DNA of 64,000 nucleotides, from contig JADDQH010000002.1 of NCBI GenBank assembly GCA_016781485.1, positions 4,783-68,782 of the forward strand, given 5' to 3'. How positions within the stretch are numbered: the stretch's first letter is position 1; each line of letters opens with the position of its first letter. Source of the stretch: Chloroflexota bacterium. Its GTDB lineage: Bacteria; Chloroflexota; Limnocylindria; Limnocylindrales; CSP1-4. Below the pieces are notes generated by a model that saw nothing but the letters and a program-made list of their open reading frames with translations, was not told where the DNA came from and made no database searches. The position numbers were made by a program, and so were the translations under genes. Below are positions 51,981 to 64,000 of this stretch, piece after piece.

Positions 51981-53417
51981 ATGAAGTTCAGCACGACGCC
52001 CGCCGGGCGCAGTACCGTCATGCTCGAGGTGGAGCTCCCTCCCGAGAGGCTCCAGCGCTCGATCGACGAGTCGGTCCGCCATCTCGGACAGCGGACCCGG
52101 ATCCCGGGGTTCCGGCCCGGGAAGATCCCGCGGCCGATGCTCGAGCGTGCCTTGGGGGTCCGCCGCGACGACCCGTCCGCGCCGAACCCGATCCATGACG
52201 ACGCCAAGGAGCACCTGTTCGAAGCCTCGGTCCTGGAGGCGCTCCAGCAGGCGGACCTCGATGTGCTCTCGATCTCCCAGCCGGAGTGGCTGTCCTTCGT
52301 CGAGGGGCAGGGTGCGAGATACCGCGTCACGCTGCCGGTACGGCCGGAGGTGAGACTGGGGGCGTACACGGACTACCCGTTCGGGATCCAGGTCGAGCCG
52401 GTCGATGATGCGAAGGTCGACCAGGTCATCGAGCAGCTCCGAGACCAGCAGGCGAGCCTCGTGCCGGTCGAGGGACGCGGGGCGGAGAAGGGCGACTACG
52501 CCGTGGTCCGCTTCGAGGGGCGTCGCGACGGCGAGCCGTTCGAGGGCGGTTCCGCGGACCGCTTCCCGCTCGTGATCGGCGCGGAGCGGATGATCCCAGG
52601 CTTCGAGGATCAGGTGATCGGGCTCGAGGAAGGCCAGAGCAAGACCTTCCACATCACGTTCCCGGACGACTACCCGGACGAGTCACTGGCCGGGAGGGAC
52701 GTGGAGTTCGACGTGACCCTGCTCGAGCTGCGTCACAAGCAGCTGCCGGAGCTCGACGACGATCTCGCAGGGGCGGTGGGGGAGTACGCTGATCTCGCCG
52801 CGCTCCGTGCCGAGATCCGGCGACGGCTCGAGGTGAACGCCCGCGACGACGCGCGGCACGCGTTCGCGGACCGGATCATCGAGTTCGCCGTCGCCAACGC
52901 AACGGTCGAGATCCCCGACCTGCTCATCGACCGCGAGGTCGAGGTGATGCACGACGAGCTGAAGGCGCGCCTCGCCGACCAGGGGATCGGCTACGAGGAG
53001 TACCTCCGGGTGACGCAGAAGGACGAGGCCGGGCTGCTCGCGGAGTATCGCGAGCCGGCCGAGCACCGTGTCAAGACGCTGCTCGTGCTGTCCGAGATCG
53101 CCGACGCCGAGGGGATCGAGGTCAGCGACGATGCCGTCGAGGCCGAGATCGAACGGGCGCGGACGCGGTACACGGAGAACCCGAAGCTGGTGTCCTATTT
53201 CGACTCGCCGCGCGGCCGCCAGTACATCCGATCGACCCTTCGGCGGACGAGGACGGTCGAGACGCTCGTCGATCGCTGGCTCGCAGCGCATCCCGAGGTT
53301 GGGCCGGTCACGCACCTCGAGGGAGAGGCCGGCGGCCGAACGGGCTCGGTCGTCCCGTCCGACGCCGGCGCGACGACGGCTTCCAGGGAACCCGAAACGG
53401 AGGAGAGCATCACGTGA
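51981..53417 (+). CDS. tig: Trigger factor
   Basis: Ribosome-binding signature ([12 protein letters not shown]), a PPIase middle part (IPGFEDQ) and position immediately upstream of clpP-clpX. Confidence 0.9.
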
Positions 53418-53539
53418 CGTCCAAGCGCCGGGCGGAGGTCCCCGATCATCGATCCCGGCTTCTGCGCGATCTGGCAGAAGCGAACGGTGTCAGACCGTTC
53501 CCATCCGCCGCCCTTCGCGCTGCTCGCGAGACGCGAGCG

Positions 53540-54220
53540 ATGCTCGTTCCGATGGTCATCGAGAGCTCGAGCCGCGGCGAGCGCGCCTATGACATCTACA
53601 GCCGGCTCCTCCGGGAGCGGATCATCTTCCTCGGCGACGCGATCGAGGACCACATGGCGAACCTCATCATCGCCCAGTTGCTGTTCCTCGAGTCCGAGGA
53701 CCCGGACAAGGACATCAGCCTGTATATCAACTCGCCGGGCGGCGTCGTCACGGCGGGCTTGGCGATCTACGACACGATGCAGTACCTCCGTGCGCCCGTC
53801 AGCACGATCTGCATCGGGATGGCGGCGAGCCAGGCAGCTGTGCTCCTCTCCGCCGGTTCGAAGGGGAAGCGGTACGCGCTCCCGAACTCACGGATCATGA
53901 TCCACCAGGGGAGCGGTGGCTTCCGCGGCAACGCGCCCGATGCTGTGATCCAGATGCGGGAGTGGGAGCACCTCGTGCGCGTGAATCACGAGATCCTGGC
54001 CCGGCACACGGGTCAGCCGCTCGACAAGGTCACTCGCGACACGGAGCGCGACTATTACCTGTCCCCGGAGGAAGCACGGGACTACGGCATCATCGACCAG
54101 GTGTATTCGCCCCAGGATGAGTCGCTCATCAGCCAGGCGAAGCACGAGGGCGGCCTGGGCGGAGAGGGCGCGGCGGTCGCGGCCGGCGAACACATCGAGC
54201 CCGTGACGGACAGCCAGTAG
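53540..54220 (+). CDS. clpP: ATP-dependent Clp protease proteolytic subunit
   Basis: Motifs are [24 protein letters not shown] and the catalytic Ser (GMAASQAA) and His (MIHQ). There is a ~35-aa C-terminal extension. The upstream part of the track ORF (53414-53539) is not conserved-looking. Confidence 0.92.
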
Positions 54221-54250: not shown

Positions 54251-55549
<1,299 letters not shown>

Positions 55550-55799: not shown

Positions 55800-56174
55800 A
55801 TGAAGCCCGTAACGGTCAAGATCATCACGTACGCGCCGACCGTCTTCTATCACTGTCAGCACTGCGAGCTGACCTTCCAGGAGATGGGGATCGGCGAGCG
55901 GTTGCGGCGGCAGGAGGCGGCCGAGGCGCTGCCGGAGGACCTCGCGCGCGAGTACCAGCGGCTCTCGGACTGGGTCCGGGACCTGGTCGCGCGGTACGGC
56001 CCCCGGATCCACGTGAGGGTGATCGACGCCGCGTCCATAGAGGGCGTCCTCGACTCCGTGCGTCACCGCGTCTTCCGATACCCCGCGGTCGTCGTCGACG
56101 GCGCCGAGAGGAGCGTGGGCGGCGATCTTCGCGCCGCGGAGCCGGCGATCGAGCGCCGTCTCGCGATGCCCTGA
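55800..56174 (+). CDS. Thioredoxin-fold-like small protein with a CxxC motif
   Basis: 124 aa with YHCQHCE near the N-terminus and a cis-Pro-like motif (YPAVVVDG). It lies upstream of cstA. Confidence 0.55.
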   Translation: MKPVTVKIITYAPTVFYHCQHCELTFQEMGIGERLRRQEAAEALPEDLAREYQRLSDWVRDLVARYGPRIHVRVIDAASIEGVLDSVRHRVFRYPAVVVDGAERSVGGDLRAAEPAIERRLAMP

Positions 56175-56282
56175 GGCCAGGGCAGACGGTGCACGCCGCG
56201 AAAGGAGGTCGCGAGGAGCGGGAGGAGCGGTAGTGAGTCACCACCGAGTCGTCGTGAAGCGACGGAGAAGGAGGGGCTGCGC

Positions 56283-58193
56283 ATGAACATCCCGATGAGC
56301 ACACTCGGAGTCGTCCTCATCGGCGCGGTCGTCATCTATCTGGGCTACAACTACTACGCGCGCCGCATCGATCGGACGATCATGCAGGCGGACGCGACCC
56401 GCGCGACACCCGCCAGGATGTACATGGACGGCGCCGACTTCATGCCCACCAGTCGGTTCGTCCTCTACGGGTACCACTTCAAGTCGATCGCCGCCGCGGG
56501 CCCGATCGTCGGTGTCATCACCGCCGCGAACCTGTGGGGGTGGCTGCCCTCGATCATCTGGCTGATGGTCGGCGTCACCTTCATCGGCTGGGTAAGCGAC
56601 TACAGCGCGATCATGATGGCGGTCCGCAACGACGGGAACTCGCTGAGCGCGATCGCCCATCGACTCGTCTCGCCTCGCACGCGGCGGATCCTGTTCGTCT
56701 TCATCTTCTTCTACCTGCTCCTGATCGGCGGCGCGTTCGTCGGGATCATGGCGGCGATCCTCGCCGCACGGCCCGACGTCCCGTTCGGGATCCTCGTGCT
56801 CGCGATCATGGGCCTGCTCGCGGGCTACCTCATCTATCGGCGCCGCGTGAGCATCGTCGGCGTCACTGTCCTCACCGTCGTGCTGACGGTCGCCGCGATG
56901 GCGCTCGGGCCGCTCGGCGCCGACTTCTCGAGGGGAGCGGCGGGTCTCTCGGCTGGGCCGATCGCGGGGACCGTCGCGGGCATCAACGGCGCGGTCAACT
57001 CGATCAGCGGGCCCACGGGGCTGTACCAGGTCGTCGACCCGACGAACGCCGATCCGCGGATCCCGCCGCCGGACGCGCAGACGAAGCAGCGCCCGACGAC
57101 GCCGACCTATAACGCGGAGACGGGGGCCATCAACGTCCTGCCGAGCTTCCTGTTCTGGGCGATCCTGCTGCTCGTCTTCAGCTACCTTGGCACCAACCTT
57201 GCCATCTGGCGCTTCGCGCAGCCGGTGAACTACATCGGCTTCTGGATCACGGCACTGACCATCGGTGTGAGCGCGATCGGCGCGATCCTCGCTCCGTTCA
57301 TCCGACCGGAAGTCGCCGGGTTCAAGATCCCGACCTTCACCTCATTCGCCCCCGCGCAGGCCACCGGCGCGATCCAGTGGCTGTGGCCGATGCTGTTCGT
57401 CACGATCGCCTGCGGCGCGATCTCCGGCTGGCACGCGCTGTTCGGCTCGGTCGGCACCGCGCGCCAGCTGGAGTACGAGACCGACGCGCTCCCTGTCGGC
57501 GGCGGCGGGATGTTCTCGGAGAACACACTCGGGCTGCTGTCGCTGACCGCGGTCGCGGTCGCGGGGGGTGCCGGGGCGGGGGCGTTCGCGGCAGGGGTCG
57601 GCACGCTCCTCAATGTGGCCACACTCGGGCTCCTGCCGACCGGCTACGGCACGGCGCTCGGCTTCGGTGCCTTCGTGGTCATCGTGCTCACGGTCGTCCA
57701 GCTCGTCTTCCGGGTGATGCGGGTGACACTGGGCGAGTGGCTGGGCGATGCCTGGGTCGGCTTCAAGAACCAGCACGTGGCGACGATCGTCTCTTCGGTC
57801 GCGGTCCTGTTCCTCGTGCTCTCGGGGACGTGGGTCTACCTGTGGCAGCTGTTCGGCGCTTCCAATCAGCTGATGGCGGCGCTCAGCCTGCTGCTGGTGA
57901 CACTTTGGCTCGCGTCGACGGGGCGGAACGTGGCGTTCGCGGGGATCCCGATGGTGTTCATGTACGTCACGACGATCGCCGCGTCGCTCGTCACTGCGTA
58001 CAACCTCTACGCGACGATCGCGACGCGGCCGACCTCGAACGTGATCCAGATCATCGGCGCCTGGGGGATGATCGCTGTCGCCCTGCTCCTCGTGGCGGCG
58101 GCGCTCCTCATCGCGTGGGACGCGTGGCGAGCGTGGAACCGCTATCGAGCTGCACCCGCGCAGCCGGCTCCCGCTCCGACAGCCGCCAGCTAG
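56283..58193 (+). CDS. cstA: Carbon starvation protein A (peptide/pyruvate transporter family)
   Basis: 636 aa and polytopic, with YHFKSIAAAGPIVGVITAANLWGWLPS. Confidence 0.9.
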   Translation: MNIPMSTLGVVLIGAVVIYLGYNYYARRIDRTIMQADATRATPARMYMDGADFMPTSRFVLYGYHFKSIAAAGPIVGVITAANLWGWLPSIIWLMVGVTFIGWVSDYSAIMMAVRNDGNSLSAIAHRLVSPRTRRILFVFIFFYLLLIGGAFVGIMAAILAARPDVPFGILVLAIMGLLAGYLIYRRRVSIVGVTVLTVVLTVAAMALGPLGADFSRGAAGLSAGPIAGTVAGINGAVNSISGPTGLYQVVDPTNADPRIPPPDAQTKQRPTTPTYNAETGAINVLPSFLFWAILLLVFSYLGTNLAIWRFAQPVNYIGFWITALTIGVSAIGAILAPFIRPEVAGFKIPTFTSFAPAQATGAIQWLWPMLFVTIACGAISGWHALFGSVGTARQLEYETDALPVGGGGMFSENTLGLLSLTAVAVAGGAGAGAFAAGVGTLLNVATLGLLPTGYGTALGFGAFVVIVLTVVQLVFRVMRVTLGEWLGDAWVGFKNQHVATIVSSVAVLFLVLSGTWVYLWQLFGASNQLMAALSLLLVTLWLASTGRNVAFAGIPMVFMYVTTIAASLVTAYNLYATIATRPTSNVIQIIGAWGMIAVALLLVAAALLIAWDAWRAWNRYRAAPAQPAPAPTAAS

Positions 58194-58260
58194 TGACCTC
58201 GTGTAGGCGGAGTTGGAGCGCCGCGGCGAGGCCCTTCGACGCTTGCATCGGCGGGCCTCG

Positions 58261-58926
58261 CTAGGTCTCCCGGCTCAGTTCGCGCCCGAGGTCGCGGATC
58301 GACCGGAAGAGCGTTTCGGAACTTTGCGTGAACGCCGACGGCGGCAGCAGGTGGATCTCGAGGTGGGGCACCGTCGGCTGGATCGAAAGCCGCCACACGC
58401 CGCCGGTGGCCGAGGCGAGACGCTGCCACGCTCGCCTCGGTCCCGCGACGTCCGGACCCCCGGTGTGGAGCGCGCGGACCCCTGGGTCTCCCCAGTCCAC
58501 CTCCGCCCATGCGCCTCCATCGCCTGCTCGATCGAGCCCGTCCCGCCCGGTCCACGCCTCCGAGTCGGCCGCCTCGAGCCCGAAGCGCGGCGGGCGACGG
58601 AGACTCGCTCTGACGATGACGAAGTCGCGCCGACCACGACCCCTCGCGAGGGCCCACAGCCACGGCACATCGCGCGGCTCGAGGACGACGAGGACCTCTG
58701 CCTGTCGGAACGGATCCTCCGGTTCCGTGATGCCGAGCACGACCGCCGAGCTCCCGAGCCAGCGCAGCGTCGCCCGTTTTCCGAGCAGTGGCAATCCAGC
58801 CTGTAGCCAGCGGAGCACCGCGTTGCCCCGCCCGATGTTGCGCTGCGTGCCGAGCGCGAACCAGAGCATCACGACCAGCAGCAGCGCGATCGCAACAGAG
58901 GTCGAAAGCGCGGTGAGGTCAGGCAC
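58261..58926 (-). CDS. Hypothetical N-terminally membrane-anchored protein
   Basis: 221-aa ORF with one N-terminal TM (VAIALLLVVMLWFAL). It is divergent from the small-protein/ArsA module, 62 bp from the ATG I chose at 58989. Confidence 0.5.
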   Translation of the reverse strand: MPDLTALSTSVAIALLLVVMLWFALGTQRNIGRGNAVLRWLQAGLPLLGKRATLRWLGSSAVVLGITEPEDPFRQAEVLVVLEPRDVPWLWALARGRGRRDFVIVRASLRRPPRFGLEAADSEAWTGRDGLDRAGDGGAWAEVDWGDPGVRALHTGGPDVAGPRRAWQRLASATGGVWRLSIQPTVPHLEIHLLPPSAFTQSSETLFRSIRDLGRELSRET

Positions 58927-58988
58927 AGGACGGTGATGGTAGATTGCGGGGAACAGTCGCGAGCAGCATCACGGTGAGCGCGAGCGCG

Positions 58989-59339
58989 ATGCCCAGAGAC
59001 TCATCCGTACCGCCCTCGGTCCCTCCGTCCATCTCGCGACGGACGTCGTCTCGCGGAACGGATGGGCGCGTCGGCGGAGTTCGAGACGCGCTCCGGGAGT
59101 TCTTCCATGGCCTGACCGGATACGAGTTCGCGCGTCACGCGGTCGAGATGCGGGCGTCGCTCGAGACCGTCTTCATGGTCAGTGTCGTCGGCGACATGGT
59201 CGGGTTGCCGATCATGCCGCCCTACTACTCACTTCGTCTGCTGCCGTACGTGGTCCCCGACGTAGCGCTCTGGCGGCGCCGGGTGCTACGCGAACGCGAA
59301 TTCACCGAGCACCACGAGTACCACCTGCATGGGGTGTGA
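58989..59339 (+). CDS. Small protein A of a paralogous pair (core GDMVGLPIMPPYYSLRLLPYVVPDVALWRRRVLRE)
   Basis: In-frame ATG within the 131-aa track ORF; TTG 58944 and GTG 58974 are alternatives. The core is 27/40 identical to the next ORF. Confidence 0.6.
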   Translation: MPRDSSVPPSVPPSISRRTSSRGTDGRVGGVRDALREFFHGLTGYEFARHAVEMRASLETVFMVSVVGDMVGLPIMPPYYSLRLLPYVVPDVALWRRRVLREREFTEHHEYHLHGV

Positions 59340-59366
59340 CCCGGACCCCGGCGGAAGGAGGTAGCC

Positions 59367-59666
59367 ATGCCGGACGAGCCGCGTGATCGCGAGGAACGCC
59401 AGGAGCAGGGTGGCCTGAAGGGGCTGCTCGGCCGGTTCCGGGAGGTCACCTACGGGATGGCCGCCCACGACATGACCCGGTACGCGCTTCGAAGCCGGGC
59501 GAGCATGGAGCACCTGTTCATCCTCACCACGATGGGTGACCTGCTCGGAGTGCCGATCCTGCCGCCCTACTACTCGCTCCGGCTGCTGCCGTACGTGGTG
59601 CCGCAGGTATCGACGTGGAAGCGGCGGATGCTCCGTGAGAAGGACCTCACGGACGCGATGTTCTAG
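59367..59666 (+). CDS. Small protein B of a paralogous pair (core GDLLGVPILPPYYSLRLLPYVVPQVSTWKRRMLRE)
   Basis: 99 aa. A strong Shine-Dalgarno element (GGAAGGAGG) lies 6 nt upstream of the ATG. The stop is 4 nt before the ArsA-like gene. Confidence 0.7.
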   Translation: MPDEPRDREERQEQGGLKGLLGRFREVTYGMAAHDMTRYALRSRASMEHLFILTTMGDLLGVPILPPYYSLRLLPYVVPQVSTWKRRMLREKDLTDAMF

Positions 59667-59670
59667 AACG

Positions 59671-60834
59671 ATGGCCGGACCCACCGCGACGCCACCCCGG
59701 GGTCAGGGCCAGGCGCCGCTATCACTCGCGACCTACGCCGGTTCGCTCGCCGACCTGTTCGAGAAGCACCCGGAGCGCCGGTACGTGATGTTCGGCGGCA
59801 AGGGCGGTCTCGGGAAGACGACGTTCTCGGCGGCGACCGCGTTCTGGCTCGCCGAGCAGGGCAAGAAAGTCCTCGTCTTCTCCGTCGACCCGCAGGCGAG
59901 CCTGTCCGACATCTTCCAGCAGGACATCTTCGGCAAGGGTGCCGTGAAGATCAAGGACAACCTGTGGGCACAGGAGATCGACGCGGACCGGCACATCAAG
60001 GAGTACCAGGAGGAGATCCGCCACAAGATCCGCGACATGTACGGCCTCGACCAGGTCCCCCAGGAGATCGAGGAGTACATCGAGGCGGCCTCGGCCGAGC
60101 CGGCGATGGAGGAAAGCGCGATCTTCGACTCCGTCGTCGACATCGTCGTCGAGGGCGATTACGACTACTACATCTACGACCTGGTCCCACTCGGCCACGC
60201 GCTCTACTACCTGAGCATGGCGAAGGTGTACGACGAGTGGATCTCCAAGATCACGCGACTCCGCGAGGAGATGCGCGAGTACGAGGAAGTCGCCGCCAGG
60301 ATGAGGCGGCAGAAGGAGGTCGAGGAGGATCTGATCCTGGGCGAGCTCCAGTACATCCGGGGCCGGATCAACAGCGCCTCCAGGATCCTGACCGACCGCG
60401 AGCGGACCGCCTTCTTCTTCGTCCTCGTCCCCGAGCAGATGATCCTCATCGACACTCGGAAGGCCGCGGAGCTGTTCGCACGCTTCGACGTCCCGATCGG
60501 CGGGTACGTCGTCAATCGGGTCTTGCCCGAATCGCTCATGAACGAAGATGTGCCCGGATACCTCCGGAACCGGATGGCGATGCAGCGCGGCCAGCTGGAC
60601 GAGATCCGGCGGACGCTCGGCGACGAGGTGCTCGCGTACGTGCCCGAGCTCGAGCGCGACGTGACGGGGCTGGACATGATCGAGCGCGTCGCCCGCCTCC
60701 TCTACGGCCGCGACGGCGCTGCTGCGGCGCCGGTGCAGACGGGAAGGCCGGCGTCGGCGGAACCGCCGGGAGCCGGGGGGCTCGGCGTCGGATCGCCGAC
60801 CGGCACCGCATCACCGTCGGGAGGTGCGTCATGA
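59671..60834 (+). CDS. ArsA/Get3-family ATPase, copy 1
   Basis: Deviant Walker A (FGGKGGLGKTT), DPQASLSDIF (the DPAHS-box position) and YDLVPLGHA (the DTAPTGH-box position). Start taken at MAGPTAT. Confidence 0.85.
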   Translation: MAGPTATPPRGQGQAPLSLATYAGSLADLFEKHPERRYVMFGGKGGLGKTTFSAATAFWLAEQGKKVLVFSVDPQASLSDIFQQDIFGKGAVKIKDNLWAQEIDADRHIKEYQEEIRHKIRDMYGLDQVPQEIEEYIEAASAEPAMEESAIFDSVVDIVVEGDYDYYIYDLVPLGHALYYLSMAKVYDEWISKITRLREEMREYEEVAARMRRQKEVEEDLILGELQYIRGRINSASRILTDRERTAFFFVLVPEQMILIDTRKAAELFARFDVPIGGYVVNRVLPESLMNEDVPGYLRNRMAMQRGQLDEIRRTLGDEVLAYVPELERDVTGLDMIERVARLLYGRDGAAAAPVQTGRPASAEPPGAGGLGVGSPTGTASPSGGAS

Positions 60835-61898
60835 CACAGCTCACCGAGACCGGGCGGCCGCTCGCTACCGAGGCACGGGACGCCACGCCGATCGACACGA
60901 GACAGGCGGTCGGTGAAGGGAGTCCTCTTGTCACGACCTCGATGAGAGCGTTCTTCGAGGCGCATCCGGGAGCCCGGTATCTGTTCTTCGGCGGCAAGGG
61001 TGGTGTCGGCAAGACGGTGATGGCGGGGATGACCGCCGTCGAGCTGGCTCGCAGCGGGCGTCGGATCCTGCTCGCGTCTACCAACCCCGTCCATAGCCTC
61101 TCGGGGTTGCTCGGGCAGGACGTGTTCGGTCGGCCCACGCCTGTCGCCGGCGCCGAGAACCTGTGGGCCTTCGAGATCGACACGAGGGACGCGATCGACC
61201 GCTCGAAGCGGGAGATCAAGGAGAAGATCCAGTGGTTCCTCAAGTTCGCGGAGATCTCGACGAAGGCCGATGAGTTCGTAGAGGCCGCCACGATGAACCC
61301 GGCGTTCGAGGAGTCGGCCATGTTCGAGAACATGGTCGACCTGATGTTCAAGGACGAATACGACGTCTACGTCTTCGATACGGCACCGACGGCGAACGCT
61401 CGGCGGCTGCTCGGGATGTCCAAGGTGTACGGGCTGTGGGTCCAGAAGATGCTCAAGTCCCGCGAGGAGGCACAGTCGCTCCGCGAGGCGCTCTCCTTCA
61501 GCAAGAAGAAGGAAGAGGACCCACTCATGAACTACCTCGTCGAGTTCAGGGAGCGGATCCGGCACGCGCGCGACCTGCTGACCGACCCGGAGAAGACCGC
61601 GTTCTTCTTCGTGACGCTTCCCGAGGCGCTCCCGATCGCGGTCATCCGGCGCTTCATCACCTGGTTCACCGACTTCGGCATCCCGGTCGGCGGCGTCGTG
61701 GTCAACGGCGTCATCGCTCGCGAGGACGGCGCCCACTCATCCGAGTTCGTACGCAATCGGATCGCGATGCAGGAGGGCTACCTGGGCGAGATCCGGCAGC
61801 TGTTCGACGGCCAGGTGCGAGCGGTCCTGCCCCTCTACGACAGCGACATCCGGGGTGTGCCGATGCTCGAGAAGGCGGGGCGGGCCCTCTTCGCGTGA
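60831..61898 (+). CDS. ArsA/Get3-family ATPase, copy 2
   Basis: The ATG overlaps the stop of copy 1 (ATGA at 60831-60834). Motifs are FGGKGGVGKTV, TNPVHSLSGLLG and FDTAPTANA. Confidence 0.85.
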   Translation: MTQLTETGRPLATEARDATPIDTRQAVGEGSPLVTTSMRAFFEAHPGARYLFFGGKGGVGKTVMAGMTAVELARSGRRILLASTNPVHSLSGLLGQDVFGRPTPVAGAENLWAFEIDTRDAIDRSKREIKEKIQWFLKFAEISTKADEFVEAATMNPAFEESAMFENMVDLMFKDEYDVYVFDTAPTANARRLLGMSKVYGLWVQKMLKSREEAQSLREALSFSKKKEEDPLMNYLVEFRERIRHARDLLTDPEKTAFFFVTLPEALPIAVIRRFITWFTDFGIPVGGVVVNGVIAREDGAHSSEFVRNRIAMQEGYLGEIRQLFDGQVRAVLPLYDSDIRGVPMLEKAGRALFA

Positions 61899-62074: not shown

Positions 62075-62334
62075 CCTCACGGCAGGGACCGAGAGGAGTA
62101 GCACTCCCACGGCCGTCCAGAGACGCGGGTCGAGGCTGGAAGCCCGCGCGGAACCGGAGAGCGAACGTCGCTCGCGAGTCGTGACGGGAGGCGCCCGGTA
62201 GCGCGCCGAGAGGACGGAGGATCAGCCGCCTGGTGCGGCTAGGGAGCGGGATGACCGCGTTCTGATCGACCGTCGAACCAGCAGGTGGTACCACGACCCC
62301 GTTCGTCCGCTGGACGAGCGGGGCGTTTCATTTT
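62075..62334 (+). promoter_or_regulatory. T-box riboswitch leader of valS (candidate GUC specifier at 62167-62169)
   Basis: Stem I elements are GAGGAGTAG (AGUA-like) and the AGAGA bulge. The T-box core GGTGGTACCACG is at 62285-62296. The terminator is CCCCGTTCGTCC-GCTG-GACGAGCGGGG followed by CGTTTCATTTT (62297-62334). Confidence 0.75.
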
Positions 62335-62388
62335 GCGGCCGCGGAGAGCAGGACCAGGGAGCGTCCGGAGCGGCGCGGTAGCGACAGG

Positions 62389-64000
62389 ATGTCGGTGATG
62401 AGCGAGGTGTCGGAACAGCAGGCGAGGCCGGAACAGGCACCGGAAGAGCTGCCGAAGGCCTACCGCCCGACGGAGGTCGAGCGGGAGATCTATCAGCGCT
62501 GGCTCGATGCGGACGTGTTCGCCCCCGACGGGAGTGGCAGCCGTGCGGATCGGTCGGCCCCCCCGTTCGTCGTGACCCAGCCGCCGCCGAACATCACCGG
62601 GGCGCTCCACACCGGGCATGCGCTCACCGGGACACTCGAGGACGCGATGGTCCGCCGAGCGCGGATGCAGCGACGGCCGACGCTCTGGCTGCCCGGGCTC
62701 GACCACGCCTCGATCGCGGCACAGGTGGTCCTGGACCGGATCCTCGCGCTCGAGGGGGAGAGCCGCCAGTCGATGGGGCGCGATCGGTACCTGGAGCGGA
62801 TGTGGTGGTTCATCGACGAGACCCGCGACGTGATGCTCGGTCAGGAACGGCGGATGGGTTTCTCGCTCGACTGGGCCCGGCTCAGGTTCACGATGGACGA
62901 AGGGTCCGCGCGTGCTGTCCGGGTGAGCTTCAAGCGGCTGTACGACGAAGGCCTTGCCTACCGCGCCGAGAAGCTCATCAACTGGTGCCCGAGCTGCCGA
63001 ACGAGCCTCTCGGATCTCGAGGTCATCGCAACGCCCGAGACGGGGACGCTGTGGTTCGTCCGCTACCACCTCCTGGGACGAGACGGGACACCGGACCCGA
63101 GCGAAACGATCACCGTTGCGACGACGCGCCCGGAGACGATCCTCGGGGACACCGCCGTCGCGGTGCATCCGGACGACGAGCGGTATTCCTCGCTCGTCGG
63201 GCGCGAGGTCCTGATCCCGTTCGTGAACCGCCGGGTGCCGGTCATCGCCGACCACGTGGTCCAGCGCGAGTTCGGCTCGGGTGCCGTCAAGATCACGCCG
63301 GCGCACGACGACGACGACCACGAAACGGGGCGGCGCCACGGTCTGCCGAGCATCGAGGTGATGGATGACCGCGCCGCCATCAACGCGAACGGCGGCCCGT
63401 ACGAGGGACTGTCACGCGAGGAGGCGCGCCGCCGGATCGTCGCCGATCTCGAGAAAAAGGGGGATCTCGCCGAGGCGCGCGCTCACGAGATGGTCCTGGG
63501 GCGATGCGAGCGAAGCGACGACGTCGTCGAGCCACGGCTGAAGACGCAATGGTTCGTCCGCACGAGGCCGCTCGCGGACAAGGCGCTGGCCGCCGTCCGT
63601 GAAGGGCGCACGACGTTCGTCCCCGCGCGGTTCGAAAAGGTGTTCTTCGACTGGCTCGAGAAGATCCACGACTGGAACGTGAGCCGCCAGCTGTGGTGGG
63701 GCCACCGGATCCCCGCCTGGTACTGCCCCGACGGCCACGTCACGGTGTCCGATGAGGAGGGCGGACCGGCGGCGTGCGAACGGTGCGGACGCCCGAGCGG
63801 TGAGCTCGCGCAGGACGAGGACATCTTCGACACCTGGTACTCCAGCGGTCTGTGGCCCTTTTCCACGCTCGGGTGGCCCGATCCGACCGATGACTACGAC
63901 CGCTTCTACCCGACGACGGTGATGGAGACGGGCTACGACATCATCTTCTTCTGGGTGGCGCGGATGATGATGCTCGGTGAGTGGCTGACGGGGGAAGCCC
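62389..64000 (+). CDS. valS: Valyl-tRNA synthetase (3' end lies outside the window)
   Basis: The open frame runs to the window end. It shows PPPNITGALHTGHA (the HIGH region), WLPGLDHASIAAQ and WNVSRQLWWGHRIPAWYC. It is absent from the ORF track because no stop codon is reached. Confidence 0.93.
   Translation, partial: MSVMSEVSEQQARPEQAPEELPKAYRPTEVEREIYQRWLDADVFAPDGSGSRADRSAPPFVVTQPPPNITGALHTGHALTGTLEDAMVRRARMQRRPTLWLPGLDHASIAAQVVLDRILALEGESRQSMGRDRYLERMWWFIDETRDVMLGQERRMGFSLDWARLRFTMDEGSARAVRVSFKRLYDEGLAYRAEKLINWCPSCRTSLSDLEVIATPETGTLWFVRYHLLGRDGTPDPSETITVATTRPETILGDTAVAVHPDDERYSSLVGREVLIPFVNRRVPVIADHVVQREFGSGAVKITPAHDDDDHETGRRHGLPSIEVMDDRAAINANGGPYEGLSREEARRRIVADLEKKGDLAEARAHEMVLGRCERSDDVVEPRLKTQWFVRTRPLADKALAAVREGRTTFVPARFEKVFFDWLEKIHDWNVSRQLWWGHRIPAWYCPDGHVTVSDEEGGPAACERCGRPSGELAQDEDIFDTWYSSGLWPFSTLGWPDPTDDYDRFYPTTVMETGYDIIFFWVARMMMLGEWLTGEA

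Follow-up and report, generated by a model that had tools for sequence, protein, structure and literature searches.

A conserved gene cluster of a CstA-family transporter, DUF7990 proteins, and a Get3-like ATPase pair in a Chloroflexota bacterium: candidate adaptors between permease and predicted ATPase heterodimer

A 64,000-nucleotide (nt) stretch of DNA from a Chloroflexota bacterium (assembly GCA_016781485.1, contig JADDQH010000002.1; hereafter the window) carries, side by side, two small paralogous genes and two genes for ArsA/Get3-type ATPases. Our analysis places these four genes within a larger cluster of recurrent order, i.e., genes for a thioredoxin (Trx)-like CxxC protein, a CstA-family transporter, a divergently transcribed membrane protein of 221 amino acids (aa), the small proteins DUF7990-A and DUF7990-B, and finally ATPase 1 and ATPase 2. 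With its CstA, single-domain ArsA homologs, and small DUF7990 proteins, the locus matches the cstA-cstX-(cstY)-arsA-homologue system described by Castillo and Saier in 2010 (PMC2963123). We propose that the DUF7990 proteins may tether a heterodimeric Get3-like ATPase to CstA and so drive or gate transport, a reading toward which our belief and doubt are about evenly balanced. It draws on conserved synteny, congruent family trees (PMC2963123), gene fusions, the invariance of DUF7990, the asymmetry of the ATPase motifs, and the precedents of YbdD and btsT.

An earlier note on this DNA had drawn the unit as four genes, had known of no described system of the sort, and had not recognised the family of the small proteins. 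The unit also takes in the transporter, the operons of Castillo and Saier include adjacent ArsA pairs together with a small protein cast as coupling subunit, and the family is catalogued in Pfam as DUF7990. The kind of system is thus already known, though experimentally uncharacterised. New here are (i) two fixed types of DUF7990, (ii) a conserved asymmetry between the ATPases, (iii) a CCDC47/TtfA-like partner of ~220 aa, (iv) a Trx-like CxxC partner, and (v) gene fusions.

Conservation of the cluster

Representative species genomes were scanned with a 29-sequence DUF7990 alignment, which gave more than 582 confirmed matches. Synteny was read by tblastn with the window proteins at 82 loci, namely the best 80 of these matches plus two long metagenome contigs, and each denominator below counts the loci with enough flanking sequence for the feature in question. 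These loci span at least seven phyla, with Chloroflexota as the closest relatives, and come from Actinomycetota, Acidobacteriota, Myxococcota (Anaeromyxobacteraceae), Binatia, Methylomirabilia, Alphaproteobacteria, Stellaceae, and Symbiobacterium as well.

ATPase 1 lies directly 3′ of a DUF7990 gene at every locus that could be scored (77/77), as do both ATPase genes on the 3′ side (73/73), and a second DUF7990 gene stands immediately 5′ at 77 of the 82. A CstA-family gene is found on the same strand, 5′ and within 2 kb of DUF7990, at 58 of 64 loci; the 221-aa gene is adjacent and divergent at 67 of 79; and a Trx-like small open reading frame (ORF) occurs 5′ of CstA at 30 of 62 (tblastn, E ≤ 1e-4). 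At three Chloroflexota loci (L022, L039, and L048), the Trx-like ORF, CstA, DUF7990-A, DUF7990-B, ATPase 1, and ATPase 2 follow one another on one strand with no gene between. Since the genes outside the module vary among loci (the downstream neighbour in the window being valS), the conserved unit is 55800-61898.

In a large protein database, DUF7990-B has 5844 homologs and DUF7990-A has 1376 at E ≤ 0.001, nearly all of them unnamed metagenomic proteins. Taken with the 77/77 and 73/73 synteny, these counts carry the tightly coupled module of the earlier note far beyond chance, and its suspicion that the divergent 221-aa gene belongs to the same unit is borne out by the adjacency at most loci.

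The ATPase pair as a predicted heterodimer

Both ATPases are of the ArsA/Get3 type, scoring 244 and 229 bits against PF02374 (cut-off 24.3) and 235 and 225 bits against TIGR00345 (cut-off 135), and they are 39% identical to each other over 326 residues. The best solved relatives of ATPase 1 are archaeal Get3 proteins (3ug6, E = 3e-65; 3zq6, E = 6e-60), which ATPase 2 matches at E = 2e-54 and E = 4e-52, respectively. The doubt cast earlier on an arsenite-pump role is upheld: neither ATPase contains a Cys residue, so that both are without a metalloid site and without a zinc CxxC site; each is a single-domain protein (355-387 aa) and not a two-half ArsA of ~580 aa; and their scores against the ArsA equivalog TIGR04291 are 104-109 bits, far under its cut-off of 650. 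Among the neighbours at 53.4-64 kb, the part of the window screened for ars genes, none was seen, arsB, arsC, arsD, and acr3 included.

The deviant Walker A motif (GGKGGLGKT at 59794 in ATPase 1, GGKGGVGKT at 60990 in ATPase 2) is kept as GGKGGxGKT in orthologs. Beyond it, each ATPase retains half of the canonical DPAHS/DTAPTGHT set, and these complementary departures are conserved in orthologs (alignments of 79 sequences for ATPase 1 and 72 for ATPase 2, window proteins included). ATPase 1 has the switch I sequence SVDPQASL, in which the Asp is kept, and a variant switch II, YDLVPLGH; ATPase 2 has STNPVHSL at switch I, with Asn for Asp, and DTAPTAN at switch II, with AN for GH. In Get3/ArsA and other deviant-Walker-A dimers, such asymmetry goes with an ATP-dependent heterodimer whose sites are non-equivalent, as are the halves of ArsA. 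Complementary degenerations conserved in this way suggest that ATPase 1 and ATPase 2 form an obligate heterodimer.

Both proteins have a region corresponding to the Get3-type insert, akin in length to that of archaeal Get3 and of similar amphipathic composition (hydrophobic fraction of 0.42-0.46 versus 0.45), with 3 Met residues versus 6-9. The predicted dimer could plausibly have a groove for amphipathic helices. Among orthologs, neither the C-terminal ~40 residues of ATPase 1 (60711-60834; Ala/Gly/Pro/Ser-rich) nor the N-terminal ~35 of ATPase 2 (60831-60940) are conserved; the ATGA overlap of the two genes thus connects two low-complexity, lineage-specific tails.

The same asymmetry could serve a regulatory module instead, in which the heterodimer would sense nucleotide or energy status, or redox via the CxxC protein, and gate CstA through DUF7990 without energising it, much as do nucleotide-binding regulatory subunits of other secondary transporters. 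One ATPase site is predicted to be catalytically impaired by the Asp-to-Asn change, as is often the case in switch-like SIMIBI dimers; the cluster encodes a conserved CxxC Trx-like protein; and relatives of CstA are already H+ symporters according to annotation and to PMC7730263. ATPase 1, however, keeps both the switch I Asp and Walker A, from which hydrolysis is expected, and no sensory domain was detected in Pfam and NCBIfam scans. We consider a purely regulatory module clearly unlikely, while noting that gating and energising are not separated by the present evidence.

A further possibility is that the two ATPases are a general Get3-like holdase pair, linked to CstA and DUF7990 by co-regulation (e.g., in starvation or stress) and forming no physical complex with them. 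Insert-bearing bacterial Get3 homologs may be general chaperones, as Farkas et al. put forward in 2019 (PMC6593721), and Rv3679/Rv3680 of Mycobacterium (ATPases BagA and BagB in NCBIfam) also form a tandem Get3-like pair. Yet the similarity to BagA and BagB is very weak (39-55 bits against cut-offs of 400 for NF053622 and 521 for NF053621), and the structure of Rv3679 (6bs3) is matched at only E = 2e-8, over the P-loop; against NosAFP the scores are 47-70 bits for a cut-off of 325. Gene order kept across phyla, translational coupling, the fusions described below, and congruent trees argue for a dedicated complex, and a mere holdase pair is in our judgement highly improbable.

DUF7990-A and DUF7990-B

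The two small proteins are paralogs, as proposed earlier, with 44% identity over 95 aa (E = 8e-32); the identity of their shared core, earlier put at 27/40, comes to 26/35 in our own count and is of the same order. Pfam family PF25952 is precomputed on protein P0001, which is 100% identical to DUF7990-B, and on every homolog of A or B among the matches listed; the name DUF7990 for this family is taken from neighbourhood tables. A local Pfam scan of A and B gave no match, the scanned copy presumably being without the PF25952 model. When a library clustered at 50% identity was searched by profile, 433 DUF7990 clusters were returned. A DUF7990 profile found no match among PDB sequences, and a literature search on PF25952, DUF7990, and CC-star found nothing.

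Alignments resolve two ortholog types with distinct fixed C-termini, ...E-H-x-x-H-L-H-G-V in the A-type and ...D-L-T-D-A-M-F in the B-type, and judged by these sequences the two types are ancient. Common to both are 22 invariant positions, concentrated in GD..G.P..PPYYSLRLLPY..P....W.RR.LRE and including G, D, several P, YY, W, and RR. Conservation of this kind typically marks protein-protein interfaces, not lipid-facing anchors. The His-rich C-terminus of the A-type (59310-59339 in the window) holds a His cluster that could bind metal, and the free carboxyl ends of both types (for B, 59646-59666) could dock into a pocket of a partner.

The earlier note had likened the small proteins to clients of Get3-type tail-anchor targeting, or else to a re-entrant membrane hairpin. 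As to position, the resemblance to tail anchors stands: the core ends 20 residues from the C-terminus in B and 26 in A, where a transmembrane (TM) helix within ~30 residues of the end is expected. As to hydrophobicity it does not. The most hydrophobic 19-residue window has a Kyte-Doolittle mean of 1.62 in A and 1.32 in B, and its summed biological-scale free energy (dG) is +7.4 kcal/mol in A and +8.2 to +8.7 kcal/mol in B; within the aligned core, one Asp is invariant, one Arg is conserved, and five residues are prolines. In the AlphaFold2 monomer model of B, a helix (residues 16-60) is followed by a Pro/Tyr-rich loop (61-73) and two short helices (74-77 and 79-98); the mean predicted local distance difference test (pLDDT) score is 61, as expected if folding requires partners. 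Given the weak hydrophobicity, the Asp, the Arg, the five prolines, and a loop in place of a helix at 61-73, DUF7990 does not appear to be a classical tail anchor. Its core would suit docking, or else a re-entrant loop of the helix-plus-extended kind, packed on another protein, so that the hairpin proposed earlier is possibly correct.

These properties bear on a reading in which the ATPases take no part in transport and serve a dedicated insertion or assembly pathway. The Get3-like heterodimer would capture the C-terminal segments of DUF7990-A and -B post-translationally and deliver them to the membrane, where they would become CstA subunits, with the 221-aa protein (CCDC47-like, see below) as receptor or chaperone. 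The closest solved relatives of the ATPases are indeed the archaeal Get3 proteins 3ug6 and 3zq6, with the insert retained; a hydrophobic segment lies 20-26 residues from the C-terminus of the putative clients; in fusions of a Trx-like protein to DUF7990, an anchor-like segment at the C-terminus comes after a soluble N-terminal domain; and CCDC47 itself is a component of a eukaryotic multipass-protein chaperone complex. Against this, the core, with its Asp, Arg, and five prolines, is poorly hydrophobic (1.3-1.6; +7 to +9 kcal/mol) compared with the TM segment of the 221-aa protein (dG of -2.4), and the near-invariance of the whole 75-aa domain exceeds the needs of a targeting signal. A CstA::DUF7990 fusion would insert co-translationally, and a two-ATPase machine for two clients of 100 aa would be unprecedented. 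Bacterial Get3 homologs are moreover uncorrelated with the content of tail-anchored proteins (Farkas et al., PMC6593721). On balance, a dedicated insertion pathway strikes us as unlikely, though it carries real weight.

The fusions themselves point to physical proximity of DUF7990 to CstA and to the Trx-like protein. P0300 joins a CstA C-terminal TM region, 42% identical to residues 494-569 of the window CstA, to a DUF7990 domain. P0326, P0306, and P0265 join a homolog of the Trx-like protein to DUF7990; the N-terminal parts of P0326 and P0306 are 29-31% identical to the window protein (E = 2e-17 and 4e-11, respectively), and P0265 was assigned from its own sequence. In the cluster representatives P0121, P0002, and P0004, two DUF7990 domains are joined, A to B in the case of P0121. 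Metagenomic gene calls can merge neighbouring genes, such that single fusion cases call for caution.

As to wider kinship, 61 of 61 diverse DUF7990 members match NF041419 ("cory-CC-star protein", a model of 80 positions) over most of its length, the best at E = 4.5e-12, so that DUF7990 and cory-CC-star are probably homologous. A and B themselves score 29.3 and 33.6 bits against an equivalog cut-off of 80, and they end in ...LHGV and ...DAMF instead of the C-terminal Cys-Cys of cory-CC-star proteins. Identity with YbdD/YjiX (DUF466, PF04328) was considered and rejected at the sensitivity used: the hhalign probability against YbdD is 0.3%, and none of 61 members matches PF04328 at E ≤ 1.

A third DUF7990 gene was seen 3′ of ATPase 2 at five of six flagged loci (L034, 7334-7555; L067, 5780-6001; L071, 10158-10379; L074, 12281-12529; L079, 4479-4742), three of them from Anaerolineales, one from Thermoflexales, and one labelled only Chloroflexi. 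It is more divergent, being ~65% identical to B, and the window has no third copy.

CstA, the Trx-like protein, and the 221-aa protein

The transporter matches PF02554 at E = 5.8e-100, and three blocks of it align with E. coli CstA at 26-35% identity; no solved structure of the CstA family exists in the PDB. Its E. coli relatives carry pyruvate and peptides.

In a 21-sequence alignment of the Trx-like protein, C19 and C22 are invariant within HCxHCE, and a (R)YPAVVVDG motif is also conserved. Its profile matches small archaeal thioredoxins (1fo5, E = 0.012) and Pfam Thioredoxin_3 weakly, and from these sequence matches the product appears thioredoxin-fold-like. An ArsD-like identity is not supported: Pfam gave no match to ArsD, and among solved structures the profile brought up no ArsD chain. 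The Trx-like::DUF7990 fusions suggest a redox or thiol-dependent component of the system.

The 221-aa protein has an N-terminal TM segment with a Kyte-Doolittle mean of 2.46 and, as noted above, a negative summed dG; its 1185 homologs are all unnamed and without a Pfam domain. In an AlphaFold2 model (pLDDT of 92.8), a long TM helix at the N-terminus is followed by an alpha/beta domain and, at the C-terminus, by a further helix. In a Foldseek search of the PDB, the model matched 7tm3_4 (E = 1.1e-6, TM-score of 0.63), 9i78_4 (E = 1.3e-5, TM-score of 0.64), and 6w6l_7 (E = 8.2e-4), with TM-scores of 0.47-0.64 across these three top chains, as well as the mycobacterial MmpL3 partner TtfA (6t84, E = 4.6e-3). 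CCDC47 and TtfA are accessory factors of multi-pass membrane proteins. That the three chains are CCDC47 we infer on two grounds: CCDC47 is the sole non-Sec61 component common to these three translocon complexes, and the 371 modelled residues in 9i78 match its residues 76-447 (PMC12572126). The model thus has a CCDC47/TtfA-like fold, a likeness at fold level, with 10-14% identity, that would fit homology or convergence alike. As in CCDC47 and TtfA, one TM helix precedes a globular alpha/beta domain and a terminal helix; unlike in CCDC47, no ribosome-binding latch helices are evident. Across 51 members of the family there was no relevant Pfam match at E ≤ 1 (CCDC47 being Pfam DUF1682). A marginal TolQ-like match of the family profile to PDB sequences (E = 0.002) was judged spurious given the CCDC47/TtfA-like fold. 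On the strength of the model, the family may consist of bacterial CCDC47-like accessory factors.

Read as a whole from this protein outward, the cluster could be a prokaryotic biogenesis machine that assembles or inserts CstA or its subunits, with a Get3-like heterodimer, a CCDC47-like receptor or chaperone, and two small hairpin proteins. We regard such a machine as improbable. If it were real, parts of the eukaryotic GET and PAT/multipass-translocon systems would have a counterpart in bacteria, possibly one ancestral to them, and a first client would be defined for bacterial Get3 homologs.

Relation to described systems

Castillo and Saier found an ArsA homolog paired with CstA in 26 bacterial and archaeal clusters, of which 24 also encode CstX, a protein of ~90 aa with a single transmembrane segment (TMS), and five, all archaeal, encode CstY, of ~210 aa and likewise with a single TMS, reported in archaea only (PMC2963123). 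The trees of the three families were congruent, and CstX was proposed to couple transport by CstA to ATP hydrolysis by the ArsA homolog (PMC2963123). Their cluster 15 includes an adjacent ATPase pair, Sth1/Sth2 of Symbiobacterium thermophilum (345 and 339 aa; PMC2963123). Our locus L072, from the same species, encodes a CstA of 568 aa, one DUF7990 protein of 102 aa, and two ArsA-like proteins (at least 324 aa and 338 aa), and the only small ORF between the cstA and ATPase genes is the DUF7990 member. As L072 corresponds to the Sth1/Sth2 operon, we equate CstX with DUF7990 on positional evidence, i.e., by position, size, and the Symbiobacterium locus, the paper giving no sequences. The 221-aa protein is a candidate counterpart of CstY by its size and single-TMS topology.

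The window thus has in common with those operons a CstA permease, a small protein with one hydrophobic segment, and single-domain ArsA homologs of ~330 aa, sometimes paired, without ars genes. It differs from the published description in having two ancient CstX/DUF7990 paralogs, a ~220-aa gene that is divergent and bacterial, and a conserved Trx-like CxxC gene. With the ArsA-ArsB(-ArsD) pump, the system has in common ATPases of ArsA/Get3 fold with two non-equivalent halves and a secondary-type permease, and its Trx-fold Cys protein is comparable in role to ArsD by analogy only. Here, however, the halves are separate polypeptides without metalloid Cys residues, CstA is unrelated to ArsB/Acr3, and putative DUF7990 adaptors are added. 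Archaeal and eukaryotic Get3 (TRC40) are the closest sequence relatives of the ATPases, with the deviant Walker A and a similar insert, but the window pair is a predicted heterodimer with degenerate switches, no CxxC zinc site, a Met-poor insert, and partners that fall short of tail-anchor hydrophobicity; no homolog of the Get1/Get2 receptor was identified. Bacterial single-domain Get3 homologs with a TRC40-type insert were described by Farkas et al. in 2019 as archaeal-Get3-like and of unassigned function, with no partner genes noted (PMC6593721).

E. coli offers a parallel in the form of CstA-family transporters with a co-encoded small partner of 65-67 aa. In strain K-12, cstA is followed by ybdD (L083, 629894-632379), and btsT-yjiX-yjiA are co-directional (L084, 4587909-4591279), encoding a CstA paralog, a small protein ending in CC, and a P-loop GTPase. 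Uptake of pyruvate through CstA requires YbdD (PMC5847655). This protein ends in Arg-Cys-Cys (see also a preprint by Haft) and belongs, like YjiX, to DUF466 (PF04328). The annotation of YjiA is that of a guanosine triphosphatase, unlike the ArsA/Get3-family ATPases of the window. By analogy, then, the parallel is one of architecture only: a permease with a small protein and, sometimes, a gene for a P-loop nucleoside triphosphatase.

A proposed tether between ATPase and permease

In the mechanism we favour, the two ATPases would pair as an ATP-dependent heterodimer whose sites are not equivalent, ATPase 1 contributing the switch-I Asp and ATPase 2 the Asn, and the DUF7990 proteins would be membrane-proximal adaptors and not classical tail-anchored proteins. 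Their GD..G.P..PPYYSLRLLPY..P segment would dock on CstA or enter it, perhaps as a re-entrant loop. The flanking helices, i.e., a basic W-K/R-R-R-x-L-R-E helix and the type-specific C-termini, would bind the ATPase dimer on the cytoplasmic side. This basic helix recalls, as a lead only, the basic Get3-binding motif of Get2/CAML. Opening and closing of the dimer, driven by nucleotide, would be transmitted to CstA and thereby drive or gate transport. The 221-aa protein would help the permease, either as an accessory or in its assembly. Precedents exist by analogy in ArsA, which turns ArsB into an ATP-driven pump, and in E. coli CstA, which needs YbdD.

Several points weigh against this tethering proposal. 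(i) The coupling step is a prediction from gene order and sequence. (ii) The E. coli relatives of CstA are H+ symporters that do without an ArsA-like ATPase. (iii) The coupling idea dates from 2010, and in the literature searched no paper besides that of Castillo and Saier mentions CstX. (iv) The ATPases are nearer to archaeal, tail-anchor-binding Get3 than to E. coli ArsA, which they match more weakly (~1e-34), and they retain the Get3-type insert; its conserved length and amphipathic composition are, for our part, counted in favour of the tether also. (v) The CCDC47-like fold of the 221-aa protein points to membrane-protein biogenesis over energisation. (vi) CstA is not adjacent, 5′ and on the same strand, at 6 of 64 loci, and at 4 of those (e.g., L037 and L055) it was detected nowhere at the locus. 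(vii) In the window, the DUF7990-ATPase operon forms a transcription unit apart from that of CstA, and a gene on the opposite strand lies between the two. (viii) Foldseek found no structural match for the low-confidence monomer model of B. (ix) The CstA::DUF7990 fusion P0300 is known from one metagenomic cluster representative only and could be an artefact of gene calling.

Layout of the locus

The features of the cluster are collected in Table 1. The four ORFs of the earlier note, their coordinates, and their operon-style spacing were all recovered from the raw sequence: 27 nt separate DUF7990-A from DUF7990-B, 4 nt lie between the stop codon of B and the ATG of ATPase 1, and the two ATPase genes overlap by ATGA. 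The ribosome-binding element reported before B is likewise present. A search of the whole window found two DUF7990-type and two ArsA-type genes and no further copies of either.

Table 1. Coordinates of the cluster in the window
Feature	Position	Strand	Remarks
Trx-like CxxC protein ("s124")	55800-56174	+	124 aa; immediately 5′ of cstA; from the ORF list
CstA-family multi-pass transporter (carbon starvation / pyruvate-peptide)	56283-58193	+	636 aa; Pfam PF02554
Single-pass membrane protein, CCDC47/TtfA-like fold, candidate CstY counterpart	58261-58926	-	221 aa; from model and Foldseek
DUF7990-A	58989-59339	+	116 aa; from the ORF list; alternative in-frame TTG start at 58944 would give 131 aa
Shine-Dalgarno-like GGAAGGAGG	59353-59361	+	5 nt before ATG of DUF7990-B; read from raw sequence
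DUF7990-B	59367-59666	+	99 aa; from the ORF list
ATPase 1 (ArsA-like 1)	59671-60834	+	387 aa; from the ORF list
ATPase 2 (ArsA-like 2)	60831-61898	+	355 aa; from the ORF list

Upstream on the same strand lie clpP (53414-54220, taken as the longest ORF, with long extensions at both termini, perhaps from an over-called start) and clpX (54251-55549), the latter immediately 5′ of the module; this clp adjacency is not kept in related loci. Downstream, an open frame resembling valyl-tRNA synthetase (valS; 62266-64000, plus strand) reads ...YPTTVMETGYDIIFFWVARMMM... at its end and continues past the end of the window. A strong terminator-like hairpin of 12 pairs followed by a T-rich run (62297-62323) stands ~400 nt past the ATPase 2 stop codon, inside or just before the valS frame. 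A promoter scan gave no sigma-70-like sites and is uninformative for an organism of 68% G+C; a search of 55-64 kb of the window against Rfam gave no matches.

Implications

Our finding would come as no surprise to a specialist in transporter classification. The set of five to seven genes is nevertheless compact and very widespread, and it makes both the role of bacterial Get3 homologs and the coupling function ascribed to CstX directly testable. If the ATPase energises CstA, the system would add a second case, not homologous to the first, in which a secondary-type permease has become an ATP-driven pump, here by way of dedicated adaptors. If instead the ATPase acts in assembly together with the CCDC47-like protein, a GET/PAT-like logic of membrane-protein biogenesis would extend to bacteria. 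Either way, DUF7990 and the large unnamed family of ~220-aa proteins would gain a role.

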